From positions 352,001 to 416,000 of the forward strand of contig CAWBMV010000034.1 of NCBI GenBank assembly GCA_963789955.1: a stretch of DNA of 64,000 nucleotides, given 5' to 3'. The DNA comes from an uncultured Candidatus Rokubacteria bacterium. Lineage in GTDB: Bacteria; Methylomirabilota; Methylomirabilia; Rokubacteriales; CSP1-6. Of the stretch, positions 54,433 to 64,000 are shown piece after piece. The translations under genes were made by a program, and so were the position numbers. Each line of letters begins with the position of its first letter. The stretch's first letter is position 1. The notes below the pieces were generated by a model, which saw only the letters and a list, made by a program, of their open reading frames with translations, was not told the origin of the DNA and ran no database searches.

Positions 54433-56831
<2,399 letters not shown>

Positions 56832-56907
56832 TTTCGAGGATTTGCGAGATTTCCGGACGCGGCGTTCTGCCTTGATGGGGGAGCGCCGCGTCAGCTAACA
56901 TAGCCCT

Positions 56908-57585
56908 ATGTCTCGCCTCGGGGTTTTCCTGGGCGTGATGTCTACGGTCCTTCTCCTATCGACCTCGGCCGGAGCCCAGGTGTACCGGCTCTTCGGGGGC
57001 GACGGGACGGTCCATTTCACGAACGCGCCGACCGATCCCCGCTACAAGAACCTCGCCGGCTACTCGTCCGGCACTTCCGCCGGCTTCTTGCGTCTCGCGC
57101 GTCCCGACACGGCGCGGTACGCCGCGGAGATCAAGGCCTCCGCCGAGCGCTACGGCGTTCCCGAGCGGCTCGTCCAGGCCGTCATCCGCGTCGAGTCGGC
57201 GTTCAATCCGCGCGCGGTTTCGATGAAGGGCGCTCAGGGGCTGATGCAGCTCATGCCCGAGACGGCGACGATGTTGGGGGTTCGCAACAGCTTCGACCCG
57301 CAGCAGAACATCGACGGCGGCGTCCGGCATCTTCGCGGGCTGATCGACCGCTTCGGGAACGATCTGCCGCTGGCGCTGGCGGCGTACAACGCGGGCGAGA
57401 AGGCGGTGGTCGCGAATCGAGGGATCCCGCCGTACCCGGAGACCCGAGACTACGTGACGCGGGTAATGTATTACTACGATGGCACCACGAACGGCGCGCC
57501 GAGCCCGCCGACGACCGTATACCGGACCGTCGGCGACGACGGGGCGATCGTCTACACGAACATCCCGCCGCGCGGCCGCCGCTAG
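56908..57585 (+). CDS. Secreted SLT-family lytic transglycosylase with a DUF4124-like segment
   Basis: Signal peptide, DGTVHFTNAP, VES, GAQGLMQLMP, AAYNAG, YPETRDYV. Confidence 0.9.
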   Translation: MSRLGVFLGVMSTVLLLSTSAGAQVYRLFGGDGTVHFTNAPTDPRYKNLAGYSSGTSAGFLRLARPDTARYAAEIKASAERYGVPERLVQAVIRVESAFNPRAVSMKGAQGLMQLMPETATMLGVRNSFDPQQNIDGGVRHLRGLIDRFGNDLPLALAAYNAGEKAVVANRGIPPYPETRDYVTRVMYYYDGTTNGAPSPPTTVYRTVGDDGAIVYTNIPPRGRR

Positions 57586-57590
57586 TCCGT

Positions 57591-58320
57591 TTACTTCGGT
57601 AGTCGCGAGTTCTTTTCGAGCCAGCTGCTGACCACGGATCCAATCCTCGGAAGTACACGGCGATTCAGAACCAATCCCCAATGCGTGTCGCCGTCAGCCT
57701 CGAAGCGATCGGCCGAGAACGGAAGATCGTCGTACCGCTGCCTGGGCCACTGCGTGTCGGCCGTGCCGGTGACGACCAGCATCGGGCACGCGTCGGCGGC
57801 GATGACGATGCCGGCCTTGCGCTCATCACGTGCCATGCGGGATTCCAGGCCTGGCAATCCGAGAGCCACCGCACGCTCGTCGCGATCGAGGTCTGCCATC
57901 GAAGGCTGATGGTCGGGATCTCGGCCGGCGATCCCGTACTCTTCCGGGCCGAAGACGCCGGTCCTCAGCGCGACGCCTACGCAAGCCCGTGCGTTGCAGA
58001 GCATCGCCGCCATCATCGCCACGAGCCCGCCCATGCTCCAACCGACGAGCACGGGAGCCTGCCGTAGGGTGCGGGCGAACTGCGATCACGTCCTCGGCGT
58101 AGTCGGCCATCCGCGTGATGCCGAGATCGGCGGCCGCGCTCGCGCCGTGACCGCGGAGGTCGATGGCGTGCGAAGACCACCCGTGGCGGGCGAACTCGTC
58201 CTGCCAGAAGGTCCAGACGCGCCCCGAGTTCGCGGCGCCGTGCACCAGGATCACCGGAGGCCGATCGCCGCCACCGCCGACCAGCAAAGTGTGCGCCCGT
58301 AACGTCGGCATCGCGGACAT
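57591..58320 (-). CDS. Alpha/beta hydrolase (frameshifted)
   Basis: ILVHGAANS, IDLRGHG, GWSMGG nucleophile elbow, HWG. Confidence 0.8.
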
Positions 58321-58396
58321 TCTAAGACTGGTGGCCGATCGTCAGGCATGCTGGAATCCAAAGGCCCGATCGAGACAATCAAGAGCGGAGACAGCG

Positions 58397-59101
58397 GTGA
58401 CGATCGGCAACTGTGCGGGGGCGATGACGGTCGCAATCCTGGCTTTACTGAGCCAGGCCAGCGACGGTCGGCGCGAGACGTCTCGCCCTGCGGGTAGCGC
58501 CACGGTTTCGGAGAACACCCGCCCCGAACCGATCCCGGCGAAAGAGGTCGGTCCGCGCCCGAAACCTTCTCAGCTGACCGCTCCACCGACTCCAAGGCCG
58601 CCCATGACGGCTGCGAAGCCGCCTGCTGTAGCCGCCGGGCCGCCGGCGTCTCGGCAGAACGAAGCACCCCTGGCGGAGCCCGTTCCGCAGCAGAGCCCAC
58701 CCCTGGAGAAGAGCCAGGCTCCGTCGGAGAGCCCGCCGCCGCCGTCAACGGAGACCGCGTCGCCACCGGAAACTGCGGCACCAGAGCCCGCGAAACAGAC
58801 GGCCGCGACCCTCGACCTGACCACTCTCGAGCAGCGCCTGCGCGACACCGAGGCGATTGGAATCTTCACCAAGCTATCGCTCAAGAACCAGGTCGACGAC
58901 CTTCTGGCCGAATTCCGTGAGTTTCATCAAAAGCGTGATCAGACCATGCTGGCGAGACTGCGGCAGGCGTTCGATCTGCTCGTCCTGAAGGTGTTGTCGC
59001 TTCTGCAGGACGAAGATCCAACGCTCGCCCGCGACGTTTCGTCGTCACGCGAGGCGCTCTGGAACATCTTGATCGATCCCAACAAGTTCCAGAATCTCTG
59101 A
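58397..59101 (+). CDS. Hypothetical Pro-rich exported protein with a helical C-terminal domain (start uncertain)
   Basis: Hydrophobic N-terminus, Pro/Ala linker, LDLTTLEQRLRDTEAIGIFTKLSLKNQVDDLL...SREALW. Confidence 0.65.
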   Translation: MTIGNCAGAMTVAILALLSQASDGRRETSRPAGSATVSENTRPEPIPAKEVGPRPKPSQLTAPPTPRPPMTAAKPPAVAAGPPASRQNEAPLAEPVPQQSPPLEKSQAPSESPPPPSTETASPPETAAPEPAKQTAATLDLTTLEQRLRDTEAIGIFTKLSLKNQVDDLLAEFREFHQKRDQTMLARLRQAFDLLVLKVLSLLQDEDPTLARDVSSSREALWNILIDPNKFQNL

Positions 59102-59120
59102 ACGCTCTGAAGGAGGCGCG

Positions 59121-59375
59121 ATGAGCAGGCGAATCAAGGTCGCGGTGCTGGTCGTGTCGATGGCGACTCTTGTCGCCGGCCGCTCGCCGGCCGCCGACGA
59201 TCCGGCGGTGTTGAAGGATTTGACGGCGGTCATCGCGCTGCAGGGGCAGCCGTGTGGGCAGGTCGTCACGGCCACGAAGCAAGGCGACAACGACTACATC
59301 GCGGCGTGCAAGGACGGGAGCCGCTATCGAGTGTTCGTGAACGCGGAGGGTCGGGTGGTCGTGCAGAAGCAGTGA
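59121..59375 (+). CDS. Small secreted protein with two cysteines
   Basis: SD AAGGAGG, signal peptide, PCGQV...ACKDGSRYRV. Confidence 0.75.
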   Translation: MSRRIKVAVLVVSMATLVAGRSPAADDPAVLKDLTAVIALQGQPCGQVVTATKQGDNDYIAACKDGSRYRVFVNAEGRVVVQKQ

Positions 59376-59383
59376 GCGGTCGC

Positions 59384-60905
59384 TCACGCCCGCCACTGGC
59401 GGTCGAGCCCGCGATACTGGATCGCCTCCGCGCAGTGCTCGGCGGTCAGCGCGTCCGCGCCGGCCAGATCGGCGATCGAGCGCGCCACCTTCAGGACGCG
59501 ATCGTGGCCGCGAGCCGAGAGCCCCAGGCGCGTCATGGCCGCGGCGAGCAGGCGCTCGGCATCGCCGGACACGGCGCAGAAGCGTCGCACCTGGCGCGGA
59601 CTCATCGCGGCGTTGACGCGGATGCCGCCGGCGCGGAAGCGATCGCGTTGCCGCCGGCGGGCGACGTCCACGCGCGCGCGAATCGTCTCGCTCGCGTCCC
59701 CTGAATCGCCGGCGTGCACGTCCCCCGGCGCCAGCGCCGGCAGCTCGACCTGTAGATCGATGCGGTCGAGGAGCGGGCGGGATATGCGGCCGAGGTATCG
59801 ATTGCGCTCGGCGGGCGTGCAGACGCACGCGTCGAGCGAATGGCAGCCTCGACGGCACGGGTTGGCGGCGGCGACCAGCTGGAAGCGGGCGGGGAAATCG
59901 CTGACGCCGCTGGCGCGAGCGATCGTGACGCGGCCGTCCTCGAGCGGCTGGCGCAGCGACTCGAGGACGTGCTGCTGAAATTCCGGGAGCTCGTCGAGGA
60001 AGAGGACGCCGAGATGAGCGAGCGTCACCTCACCGGGATGCGGTGGGCCGCCCCCGCCGATGAGACCCGACACCGAGATCGTGTGATGAGGGGCGCGGAA
60101 CGGCCGTCGGCTCATCAGCTCGCCGTGCCTCGGCAGCAGCCCGGCGACCGACCAGATGGTCGAGGCCTCGATCATTTCGTCGCGGGTGAGCGGCGGAAGG
60201 ATCGCCGCCAGCCGTCGCGCCAGCATGGTCTTGCCGCCTCCCGGCGGGCCCACGAGCAGCACGTTGTGCGCCCCGGCCGCCGCGATCTCGAGCGCGCGCT
60301 TGGCATGGGCTTGGCCCCTCACGTCTGAGAAGTCGAGATCGTCAGCGGCGGCGGCGGGAGGCCTGGGCACAGATGGCGCGACCAACACTGGATCCCCTCC
60401 GTTCAGAAGGCTGACGGCGTCACGCAAGGTCGGCGCGGCAAGCACCCGGAGGCCGTCGACCGCCTGCGCCTCGCCGTGGTTCGCCAGGGGAACGACGAGG
60501 GTCTCGATGCCCTGGCGCCGGCACGCAAGGCCCACGGCGAGCGCCCCGCGGACACCCTGGATCTGGCCGTCGAGCGCCAGCTCGCCCACGACCGCGAACA
60601 GGCCGATCTGTCCGTTCCTTACGGCGCCCGTAGCCGCCAGGATGCCGAGCGCGATGGGCAGATCGAACGAGGTTCCCTCCTTTCGGACGTCGGCCGGTGC
60701 CAGGTTCACCGTGATCCGATCAGACGGAAAGGCGAAGCCGGCGTTGCGGATGGCCGTTCGGACACGCTCGCGACTCTCGCGAACGGCCGAGTCCGGAAGT
60801 CCAACCGTCGTGAAGGCAGGTAAGCCCTGGAGCCACGTCGACTTCCACGCGGACCAGCGCGGCCTCGACACCTACGAGCGCTGCGGAAAGGACCCGCGCG
60901 ATCAC
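59384..60905 (-). CDS. comM: YifB/ComM family Mg-chelatase-like AAA+ ATPase (frameshift near 60830)
   Basis: VGLPDSAVRESRER, NLAPAD, GPPGGGKT, PFRAPHH, LFLDELPEF, ARSIADL. Confidence 0.9.
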
Positions 60906-61032
60906 GAGACGATTGTTCGACCGACTCGGGTGACTCGTCAATGTCACGGATCGGGAACACTCGAATTCTATTCGGATATTGCTCGGCTCAGGTCACCGCG
61001 AGGCTGAGCACGATTGGTGCTAGAGTCCGGGA

Positions 61033-62407
<1,375 letters not shown>

Positions 62408-62408
62408 A

Positions 62409-62460
62409 CGCCCAGCTACTGGGCGCCCAGTAGCTGGGCGCGCCGCACAATCACTGGGCG
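62409..62460. promoter_or_regulatory. Three 17-bp inverted repeats CGCCCAG-N3-CTGGGCG (candidate enhancer/UAS)
   Basis: 62409-62425, 62424-62440 (these two form a perfect 32-bp palindrome) and degenerate CGCACAA-TCA-CTGGGCG at 62444-62460. Confidence 0.7.
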
Positions 62461-62547
62461 CAGCGCTAACGAAGACGGTGACAACTCACATGAGATTCGC
62501 TATCGAGAAACAGGAACTTGGACGCGAATCGTCCTCGTCGATCGCGG

Positions 62548-62564
62548 CTGGCGGTGGAATTGCT
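62548..62564 (+). promoter_or_regulatory. Sigma-54 (-24/-12) promoter
   Basis: CTGGCGGTGGAATTGCT: TGGC-N7-TTGCT with exact GG-N10-GC spacing. Confidence 0.75.
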
Positions 62565-62632
62565 TTCCGGAATCGCGGTTTCTTCTTCGGGCCCTCATGG
62601 GGAGAGCCCGTCAACCGTCGAGGAGGAAAGCA

Positions 62633-62776
62633 ATGGCGAAAGTGTGGACCGGAATCGTCGTGGTGGCCGCGGTGGTGACGTCGTTCCTGCTCGTGGCCCC
62701 GGTGATCGAGTCGGGAACGTCGGGCTCCACGCAGTTCTTCCAGGCGGTTGGTACCGCTGACGGTGGCGCGGACTAA
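62633..62776 (+). CDS. 47-aa putative exported peptide precursor (below the ORF-track cutoff)
   Basis: SD AGGAGG at 62621-62626, 6 nt before the ATG; MAKVWTGIVVVAAVVTSFLLVAPVIESGTSGSTQFFQAVGTADGGAD, TAA at 62774-62776. Confidence 0.75.
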   Translation: MAKVWTGIVVVAAVVTSFLLVAPVIESGTSGSTQFFQAVGTADGGAD

Positions 62777-62819
62777 CTACTTCAGCATTCCAGACTGGAT
62801 GAGAACGAAGGGGGGCGGT

Positions 62820-64000
62820 ATGCCCCCCTTCAAACTCGTCCTCCTGCTCGGCGTCGTCATCGCCGGCGCTGCAATGACCTTGTTGCTTCTCATCGGCCCT
62901 GCGAGCGTTCGCTCGGGAGCCCAGATCTCGGCCCAGGAGCCGCCGGTGCCCGCAGCCGCCGGGACATATCGGCGGCCGCTGGGCAACGACCCCGAGACGC
63001 TCGACCCGGCGCGCATCAGTGATACGTACGGTCGGTCCGTGTCTCAGCAGATCTTCGATGGTCTCGTACAGTACGACCAGTCCCTGACCATCAAGCCCGC
63101 GCTGGCGCAGTTCTGGCGGGCCACGCGCGACGGTCTCACCTGGACGTTCGAGCTGCGGAAGGGCGTCAAATTTCACAATGGGCGCGAGGTCACGTCCGAC
63201 GACGTGGTCTATTCGTTCACGCGCATCCTGGATCCCCGGACGCGGTCCAACGCGAACGAGTCGTTCCAGCACATCAAGGGCGCGCGTGAGTTCCGCGACG
63301 GTCGCGCCAAGAGCGTGTCCGGCCTCGTCGCGCTCGATCGCTACACGGTGCAGGTCGCCCTCACACAGGCGAACCAATCCTTCGCGTCGGTTGTGGCGAT
63401 CGGCCACGCCAAGATCCTGCCGCGGGACGTGGTCCAAGCGCAGGGAGACGCATTCGGCGCCCAGCCGATCGGGACCGGCCCCTTCCGATTCCTCCGGTGG
63501 GATCGCGGCAAGGAAATCGTGCTCGAGGCCAACGCCGACTACTTCGACGGCGCGCCGCGGCTGAGTCAGCTCGTCTACCGGATCTTCCCGGGCGAGCAGC
63601 ACGACGCGATGTACGAGGAGCTGCTGAAGGGCAATCTCGAGGACGCGCCGGTGCCGCCGCGCGCCGACCGGCGCGCCCTGGCGGCGGATCCAAGCCGGAT
63701 TTACGTGAAGCGTTCGATGATCAGCTGTGCGTTTCTACGGGTTCAACACGCGTACCAAGCCCTTCGACGATCGGCGCGTGCGCCAGGCCATCGTGCTCGC
63801 CATCGACCGCGAAGCGATCATCGACGGCGTGTATTTCGGTCAAAACACGTTCGCGCGCGGAATCCTCCCGCGCGGGATGATCGGCTACAACCCGAAGCTC
63901 GAGGGATATTCGTACGATCCGCAGAAGGCGCGCGAGCTCTTGACCGCCGCCGGGTATCCGGGCGGGCGCGGCATGCCGCCCGTGGCCATCTGGTCCGCGG
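62820..64000 (+). CDS. Family-5 (OppA/DppA-like) peptide-binding protein; runs off the window, frameshift near 63727
   Basis: N-terminal hydrophobic segment, NDPETLDPA, IFDGLVQYD, PALA, LRKGVKFHNG, PIGTGPF, FNTRTKPFDDRRVRQA; alternative start at 62799. Confidence 0.9.
   Translation, partial: MPPFKLVLLLGVVIAGAAMTLLLLIGPASVRSGAQISAQEPPVPAAAGTYRRPLGNDPETLDPARISDTYGRSVSQQIFDGLVQYDQSLTIKPALAQFWRATRDGLTWTFELRKGVKFHNGREVTSDDVVYSFTRILDPRTRSNANESFQHIKGAREFRDGRAKSVSGLVALDRYTVQVALTQANQSFASVVAIGHAKILPRDVVQAQGDAFGAQPIGTGPFRFLRWDRGKEIVLEANADYFDGAPRLSQLVYRIFPGEQHDAMYEELLKGNLEDAPVPPRADRRALAADPSRIYVKRSMISCAFLRVQHAYQALRRSARAPGHRARHRPRSDHRRRVFRSKHVRARNPPARDDRLQPEARGIFVRSAEGARALDRRRVSGRARHAARGHLVR

Follow-up and report, generated by a model that had tools for sequence, protein, structure and literature searches.

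A likely peptide quorum-sensing cassette of Rokubacteria, with a predicted code linking precursor tails to a binding-protein pocket

A gene for a 47-amino-acid precursor peptide on the forward strand of the window (the whole stretch of 64,000 nucleotides that was analysed, from contig C34 of an uncultured Candidatus Rokubacteria genome, G000) likely belongs to a peptide quorum-sensing loop with strain-specific alleles, as judged from comparative sequence analysis. The tail of this precursor, defined here as the residues after A42, is very probably the ligand of an OppA/DppA-type periplasmic binding protein (SBP) encoded by the adjacent gene, and the mature signal of the source genome is likely DGGAD, one of 52 tails. 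What is new here is this likely ligand, together with a likely code between tail and pocket. The cassette reads, in order, NtrC-type regulator, enhancer boxes and sigma-54 promoter, peptide gene (one to five copies), permease-less OppA/DppA-type SBP and kinase, and its parts in G000 are as follows, in window coordinates unless C34 is named.

61033..62407, forward strand: NtrC-type sigma-54 activator with receiver, AAA+ (GAFTGA) and HTH, from domain matches; frameshift near 62214
62410..62459, forward strand: three palindromic enhancer-like boxes, GC[AC]CA-N5-TG[GT]GC, at 62410, 62425 and 62445, from a motif scan
62508..62520, forward strand: weak IHF-like site between enhancer and promoter, with an AT-rich block in the same place in relatives
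62549..62565, forward strand: sigma-54 -24/-12 promoter TGGCGGTGGAATTGCTT, TGGC-N7-TTGC, from its motif
62621..62626, forward strand: Shine-Dalgarno sequence AGGAGG
62633..62776, forward strand: precursor peptide gene, 47 aa, from translation, profile searches and dN/dS
62633..62713, forward strand: basic n-region, hydrophobic helix and L-x-x-x-P-x-x-E motif (residues 1-27), from AlphaFold and conservation
62738..62758, forward strand: F36-x-x-[VI]-G40-x-A42, predicted processing site with a cut after A42, from conservation; no SBP partner above controls at the positions tested
62759..62773, forward strand: predicted mature signal D43-G44-G45-A46-D47, 433 Da, from covariation with the SBP pocket
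62807..62831, forward strand: 10-bp hairpin GAAGGGGGGC/GCCCCCCTTC after the stop codon, overlapping the likely SBP start, from folding and homologues
62820..64000, continuing to G000:C34:416470, forward strand: SBP_bac_5 peptide-binding protein, from a domain match; frameshift near 63725
About C34:416464-418357: sCache-HAMP-PAS-HisKA kinase, directly 3' of the SBP gene, from a domain match

The small reading frame, which a preliminary description of this DNA had proposed as an unannotated precursor gene, is real, as indicated by its ribosome-binding site, its sigma-54 promoter, a dN/dS of 0.18 (15 genes of the genus) and its spread across Methylomirabilota. Translation of 62633-62776 on the forward strand gives 47 residues with the C-terminal end QFFQAVGTADGGAD, the perfect AGGAGG reported earlier does lie at 62621-62626, 6 nt 5' of the ATG, and the peptide is indeed the first gene behind the sigma-54 element, which starts at 62549. 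Among the same 15 genes, mismatches by codon position amounted to 0.15/0.09/0.39. The gene occurs as a single copy in G000, and its profile matched 123 of the 251 genomes of the phylum, while a broader profile matched 133/251, four of them weakly (E>1e-4), that is about 129/251; these tallies take in two unpublished genomes (G233 and G115). An all-protein search with the peptide returned 82 clusters, and NC10 was the sole taxon named among the 10 divergent clusters checked. No family match was obtained in Pfam and NCBIfam, and the Atlas gave matches to unnamed clusters only. A search of viral contigs with the peptide pattern produced seven matches, none of which was confirmed.

The peptide and its putative receptor travel together. 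The order regulator, peptide, SBP, kinase is kept in 60 long loci, as far as contig and blast match extend, and the peptide is present in 114 of the 119 genomes that have an SBP orthologue; in the other five, the SBP gene lies at a contig end (three genomes) or 120-550 nt from one (two). Both genes are jointly absent in genera g25 and g26 and in family f8, as well as in g22 and f13 save for three weak peptide matches. In the loci examined, no permease was found downstream of the SBP, and no modifying or processing enzyme between regulator and kinase. A hybrid kinase-receiver follows the sCache-HAMP-PAS-HisKA kinase in the source genus. The regulator is intact as a 457-aa reading frame in G004, and a base is absent at 62214 in contigs of relatives from three of four metatranscriptome runs; the frameshifts in the regulator, SBP and kinase of G000 are likely assembly errors. 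More widely, the Lon, alpha/beta hydrolase, regulator, SBP and kinase genes look frameshifted across 54433-64000 of the window, and those compared are intact in relatives.

The ligand assignment is derived from covariation between the tail and the SBP, numbered here after L035:5793-7271. A list of pocket positions was set before the column test from a DppA sequence alignment rather than from a model of the complex, using contact residues of DppA. MI-APC over 66 cassettes gave as its top three couplings tail position 2 with Y392 (Z 10.9), position 1 with R22 (9.3) and position 3 with Y395 (4.9), all within the pre-set list, against control maxima of 5.0 in the periplasmic domain of the kinase and 4.3 in the regulator. 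In tables of 91 cassettes, from which rows lacking the relevant SBP column were left out table by table, Asp at tail position 1 stood with R22 in 56/57 and another residue with non-Arg in 32/32 (88/89 in total); Gly at position 2 stood with Y392 in 53/53 and non-Gly with non-Tyr in 29/29 (82/82), an acidic residue there always being opposite Arg at 392 (13/13); Ser at position 3 accompanied H395 in 7/8; and Ala or Ser at position 4 accompanied G/A343 in 22/22, with 61/61 for the others (83/83). In a tree of 81 SBP sequences, computed with two pocket segments excluded, tail position 1 and SBP position 22 changed 11 times each and tail position 2 and SBP position 392 12 times each, every change being coincident, and both states recur inside 5-7 genera. 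No comparable SBP partner was found for the peptide positions tested before A42. Kinase and regulator columns reached at most 0.87 for the tail1-D, tail2-G and tail4-G states, and no kinase column predicted these states better than lineage did (at most 0.85).

The code was then applied to held-out loci, 40 lying outside the training sets; dropped were four duplicates, one locus lacking SBP data and one lacking a peptide. Within the order, 24/24, 19/20 and 20/21 calls were right (63/65 in total). In nine loci of other orders, tail position 2 was called correctly in 9/9, position 1 in 5/9 and position 4, with the rule as written, in 1/9; eight of these loci encode tetrapeptides whose last residue is M, P or N, and the four failures at position 1 are the tetrapeptides EGGM/EGGP paired with R22. 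The code is thus firm for Rokubacteriales, at the level of sequence comparison, and transfers only in part beyond this order. Single misses of the code occurred in G110, G188 and G027. Tetrapeptide tails in families f7 and f10 (L242-L250) comprise EGGM, EGGP, DGGM, DGGN and DSGM, and six SBPs of f7 carry Arg at 344, near the carboxylate-binding Arg of DppA in the alignment. A Mantel test on whole-protein distances detected no covariation of peptide and SBP (partial r -0.02, p 0.54); whole-SBP distance saturates within a genus (0.26, versus 0.16 for the kinase and 0.11 for the regulator), and variability in the pocket segments did not exceed that of the remaining SBP (0.219 vs 0.221).

The SBP is predicted to adopt the OppA/DppA fold (pLDDT 92; TM-score up to 0.89) and belongs to PF00496, with scores far under the cut-offs of the named NCBIfam models. 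W394 is conserved in 80 of 82 sequences and D397 in 80 of 82, the other two having Glu, and D397 aligns with D436 of DppA. The latter residue binds the amino group of the peptide, according to the part of the DppA study used here (PMC12136057). Because the SBP retains this Asp, a free amino terminus at residue 43, produced by a cut after G-x-A, is the simplest reading, and cleavage at A42|D43 appears quite probable. In G000 the SBP has R22, Y392, A343/A344, W394 and D397, matching DGGAD. This agrees with the earlier proposal that the last 5-10 residues are the mature signal, given that pocket partners in the SBP were found only for residues after A42.

Residues 1-27 are predicted to form an export signal or membrane anchor, AlphaFold placing a helix at 2-27 with pLDDT 94-96 across residues 1-20. 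E26, G40 and A42 are invariant in 47 divergent peptides and K3, L19, P23 and F36 nearly so, and the distance from the last K/R to the Glu is 18 aa in 79 of 98 peptides and 22 aa in 16. Regional dN/dS was 0.26 for the n/h region, 0.06 for SFLLVAPVIES, 0.23 for the linker, 0.10 for FQAVGTADG and 0.18 for the last residues. SFLLVAPVIES, omitted from the preliminary description, is therefore the most conserved segment of the peptide, and the suggestion that the leader drifts must be abandoned, its c-region being the part that changes least; conservation is at the same time not confined to the helix, as the value of the FQAVGTADG core indicates. The L-x-x-x-P-x-x-E motif is likewise highly conserved. 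The GTAD-GGAD doublet is present in the source sequence as described, while the tails of relatives are GG-rich and 4-9 aa long, so that the doublet is not conserved among them and a functional G-x-A-D repeat is not supported. Tested positions in the F36-A42 segment had no SBP partner above controls. Two other products were considered and rejected. Cleavage by signal peptidase at IES|G to give the mature N-terminus is disfavoured because the residue following the Glu varies among divergent members (I, L, Y, T, H or G), and because linker residues have no pocket partner; no single signal-peptidase site after PxxE is conserved across the peptides. FLLVAPVIES as the ligand is nearly invariant while the SBP varies, and thus cannot account for the alleles. 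One variant, P0183, is an 88-aa protein in which the linker is long and a core-like segment occurs twice.

The alleles are numerous and appear to be exchanged together with the receptor. The 91 cassettes carry 52 distinct tails of 5-9 aa, 77/91 being at or below 600 Da, the size limit of porins; such Gly-rich tails would suit porin passage. Genus g1 alone has nine tails in 15 genomes, and the mosaic structure of its SBPs goes with the tail. Divergence of the SBP in the genus is unusually high (pN 0.151 vs 0.061 and 0.086; pS 0.50 vs 0.39), and the protein is mosaic, a block being exchanged between close relatives: in the pair G003/G010, identity is 95-97% in the regulator, the kinase and the 5' half of the peptide gene and 77-81% in its 3' half and most of the SBP, the divergent tract beginning within the peptide gene. 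Across 22 disjoint close pairs (background at least 86%, drawn from 313 within-genus pairs), excess divergence of the SBP tracked the 3' half of the peptide gene (rho 0.64, p 0.001) and not the 5' half (0.11). The SBP lost at most 5.3 points of identity against background in the 10 same-tail pairs, compared with -0.4 to 19.9 points in the 12 different-tail pairs (p 0.0005). The five clearest breakpoints include two inside the peptide gene, one ambiguous and two at or after its end (G005/G007 and G056/G061). Physical linkage alone would carry the 3' half along with the SBP and could explain part of this mosaic pattern. Tandem copies have a common tail in 10 of the 12 multi-copy loci, the two exceptions being an S/C variant and a frameshifted locus, and their leaders often differ. 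L046, L051, L121 and L085 have three to five tandem copies spaced about 215 nt apart, and in G036 Ser replaces Cys at tail position 1 in one of four copies. Tails beginning with Cys are frequent in genus g14, where dimerisation or modification of the peptide is conceivable.

Regulation of the cassette appears to be directed at the cassette itself. The enhancer-like boxes stand at -139, -124 and -104 relative to the -24 box and are likely binding sites of the upstream NtrC-type regulator, as the motif counts suggest: the pattern occurs in 18 of 73 cassette promoters (shuffle mean 0.4, maximum 2), chiefly in the source genus, and related TGCAC-N-GTGCA boxes were seen, uncounted, in the same position in other lineages. 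The site at 62508..62520 was matched to the IHF consensus. G000 has one rpoN, and the boxes were found at only one of its 258 sigma-54-like sites, the promoter of the cassette, so the loop looks self-directed; a regulon scan of this genome found neither a second target of the regulator nor an output gene of the loop. Downstream of the peptide gene, the hairpin at 62807..62831 is likely a leaky terminator or mRNA stabiliser, and similar hairpins with changed pairs lie 3' of many homologues (z<-2 in 39/99, 80-nt window).

Contigs from relatives span the peptide reading frame in four of four metatranscriptome runs (region compared, 62380-63000). In run X11, contig depth reached 160-369 over 62612-62775 versus 0-25 in the flanks, and the deep RNA contigs stop at 62775, before the hairpin; this hints at a short transcript, with the proviso that contigs give no ranking of genes and that this same stretch served to find the runs. 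A first metatranscriptome comparison was dominated by unrelated sigma-54 activators, and the run search yielded small shares only, so no habitat is claimed.

A related arrangement was found in delta-proteobacteria, where locus L132 has a sigma-54 promoter followed by an S8 subtilase, an SBP (43%) and an sCache kinase. The subtilase (L132:2684-4273) contains tandem DGGSG repeats, and 26 of its 27 homologues P0213-P0239 have at least two DGG/EGG units in tandem blocks. These repeats are of the type [DE]GG[SA][GA] and lie at the likely propeptide junction and/or in the loop after the GNHSNW motif, the first block often following L-Q-A-[VI]-x-A, which resembles FQAVGTA|DGG. The homologue P0225 is labelled by its source as Desulfonema magnum, a cultured species. 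Repeat-bearing subtilase genes occurred in 2/401 and 5/401 genomes of two samples (G251 in both), and homologous SBP and kinase genes were near them in 6/6 genomes and 7/11 loci (L132, L287-L293, L382-L385); several of these loci sit behind sigma-54 promoters, and the SBP is within a few kb in 7/11. In the neighbouring SBPs, position 22 is M/V/I and position 392 is Ala, so that, by the code, the repeats would be read in the register [GA]-D-G-G-[SA]. That Gly/Asp repeats are independently paired with this receptor type supports, on sequence grounds, the assignment of the ligand and suggests a subtilase as the processing enzyme of the rokubacterial precursor. Common descent of the two precursor forms may be inferred, and the rokubacterial precursor may derive from a subtilase propeptide junction. 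A metagenome scan for repeat-bearing subtilases returned mostly generic subtilases, L293 alone being examined. In G000, the four S8 matches are free of DGG repeats and there is one S26 peptidase, so no dedicated protease was identified; nor was a conserved protease gene found beside the cassette or a shared peptidase among 17 flanking proteins scanned.

Available information makes the following between-cell, allele-specific mechanism probable. The precursor would be exported, presumably by Sec, and cut after G40-x-A42, with a subtilase-type enzyme as the protease lead, to free DGGAD, and this pentapeptide would cross the outer membrane, as suggested by Gly-rich tails that are mostly at or below 600 Da (77/91). 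It would bind the adjacent OppA/DppA-type periplasmic SBP, tail position 1 being held as a free N-terminus by D397, and the liganded SBP would dock on and act through the adjacent membrane kinase. The kinase would pass phosphate to the NtrC-type regulator, which would drive the sigma-54 promoter of its own operon towards more peptide, in a feedback whose sign is on balance taken to be positive. G000 encodes Omp85 and LpxC, and the cell is therefore diderm, so the peptide could also remain in the periplasm; covariation cannot separate between-cell from within-cell signalling. A sensor of the latter kind, with the tail clipped and read in the periplasm of its own cell as a report on protease activity, export capacity or outer-membrane leakiness, is an unlikely alternative. 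It would fit the diderm envelope, the restriction of enhancer-bearing sigma-54 promoters to the cassette's own, the location of the delta-proteobacterial repeats within a protease and the peptidases that adjoin distant SBP-kinase modules, but it would have no obvious need for 52 tail alleles, nine of them in one genus, for the swapping of SBP alleles among close relatives or for low-mass Gly-rich tails.

It is quite improbable that the whole 47-aa protein instead stays in the inner membrane, its helix and PxxE contacting the kinase and its tail serving as a tethered feedback ligand of the SBP, given that SBP covariation starts at residue 43 and is absent at the upstream positions tested. The SBP also retains the Asp for a free amino terminus, the tail covaries with the SBP while no kinase column beats lineage for it, and the related subtilase repeats have no anchor of their own. 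Such a role would resemble that of MgrB, which the peptide matches in size and topology as given in the consulted portion of PMC2789325, and it would accord with the helix end SFLLVAPVIES being most conserved, with K-to-E spans of 18 or 22 aa that differ by one helical turn and with the lack of a universal signal-peptidase site after PxxE; comparison with Pfam, NCBIfam and the Atlas revealed no homology to a named small-protein family. Still more improbable is that the SBP senses external nutrient peptides, with the small protein as an accessory subunit and the tail-pocket match as a product of ancestry or linkage. Peptide-less SBP-kinase-regulator modules beside dipeptidases in other phyla, the adjacency of the peptide and SBP genes and the negative whole-protein Mantel test speak for it; however, it is opposed by 11-12 separate coincident changes, chemically matched (Asp-Arg, Gly-Tyr) and recurring within 5-7 genera, and by 63/65 correct held-out calls, and ancestry or linkage would not pick out three pocket columns. 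The between-cell loop, generalised to a family, would be a diderm form of peptide quorum sensing in which an orphan OppA-type protein recognises unmodified, Gly-rich and porin-sized tetra- to nonapeptides by a code of tail 1/2/3/4 to SBP 22/392/395/343, with dozens of pherotypes in soil Rokubacteria and a second, delta-proteobacterial polyprotein form in which many signal copies are part of a secreted subtilase that likely also releases them; for this wider statement we see about equal grounds for and against.

Several known systems share parts of this design. In Vibrio, LuxP-LuxQ-LuxO combine a periplasmic binding protein, a sensor kinase and a sigma-54 activator into a quorum-sensing receptor chain, and the ligand, AI-2, is made by an enzyme. 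The present cassette likewise encodes an orphan periplasmic binding protein with a sensor kinase and a sigma-54 activator, whereas its predicted ligand is gene-encoded and allelic and its reader is of the SBP_bac_5 type, LuxP belonging to another family; matches to the LuxQ and LuxO models were far below cut-off. DppA/OppA, PrgZ and AapF serve ABC import. They resemble the SBP in fold (TM-score up to 0.89) and in the W-x-x-D motif, and some of them bind signalling molecules, while the SBP described here is followed by a kinase and scores far under the NCBIfam cut-offs. Staphylococcal agr transmits a peptide signal through a two-component system and has specificity groups. For ComQXPA, pherotypes have similarly been described: a two-component system senses the peptide, and close relatives fall into polymorphic specificity groups (PMC4408185). 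Alleles among close relatives occur likewise in genus g1, as its tails indicate; unlike here, the ComQXPA and agr peptides are enzyme-modified, bind the kinase directly and act in monoderm cells, whereas the cassette has no modifying enzyme and its variable block is tail plus SBP.

The Rap-Phr systems of Bacillus, in the part of the account drawn on here, start from a pre-pro-protein of about 44 residues that undergoes export and a second processing step to give a C-terminal pentapeptide, with an OppA-type protein en route (PMC3814332). The layout of the short precursor and the covariation of its tail would fit such a scheme, with a predicted export leader and a predicted C-terminal mature peptide; yet Phr enters the cell through the Opp permease to bind cytoplasmic Rap (PMC3814332), whereas the cassette has no permease or RRNPP receptor, specificity would lie in the SBP, which a membrane kinase follows, and the cell is diderm, with its output through sigma-54. 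No RRNPP TPR receptor was found next to the peptide, its neighbours being the NtrC-type regulator, the SBP and the kinase. MgrB is comparable to the peptide in its 47 aa, its N-terminal hydrophobic helix and its expression under the system it likely regulates, but acts on its kinase, PhoQ, in the membrane with no binding-protein partner mentioned in the available portion of the report (PMC2789325), the partner here being the SBP pocket. A density-induced peptide of Thermotoga maritima has likewise been proposed as a peptide quorum signal outside Firmicutes, with no receptor named in the part of that source considered (PMC4187201). By analogy, then, the precursor would be Phr-like, the receptor LuxPQ-LuxO-like and the alleles ComQXP-like, and membership fails in each case.

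The consulted text of PMC4187201 treats peptide quorum sensing as, in general, a trait of Gram-positive bacteria, and that of PMC11364881 mentions the phylum solely for its smORF density. A literature search, with subscription papers and bioRxiv supplements outside its scope, found no account of the cassette or of a receptor made of an orphan SBP, a kinase and a sigma-54 activator. If true, the proposed loop would mean widespread peptide quorum sensing in a diderm, uncultured soil phylum; it would open a first way into the social behaviour of Rokubacteria and yield a set of orthogonal pairs of peptide and receptor, and the repeat-bearing subtilases would extend the system to another phylum. 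Ligand and pocket code are legible from genomes and hence testable without culturing.

Individual loci show further variations in gene content. At 59384-60871 of the window, a gene for a ComM-like Mg-chelatase ATPase is divergent from the regulator and syntenic in many genomes of family f1. A YcaO-TfuA pair lies directly 5' of the regulator in G021 (L047:12399-15007). No peptide was found in the distant modules L146, L149, L157, L169, L177 and L198, which have the order sigma-54 promoter, SBP (29-35% identity), sCache kinase and NtrC-type regulator; an M19 dipeptidase is the upstream gene in L149 and L157. In G059, a second SBP orthologue (L246), upstream of which no peptide was found, is possibly an orphan or eavesdropping receptor. 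The locus of G028 (L125:4579-7763) combines the tail NGGG with two tandem SBPs, both having Q/I at position 22, and an HtrA gene upstream.
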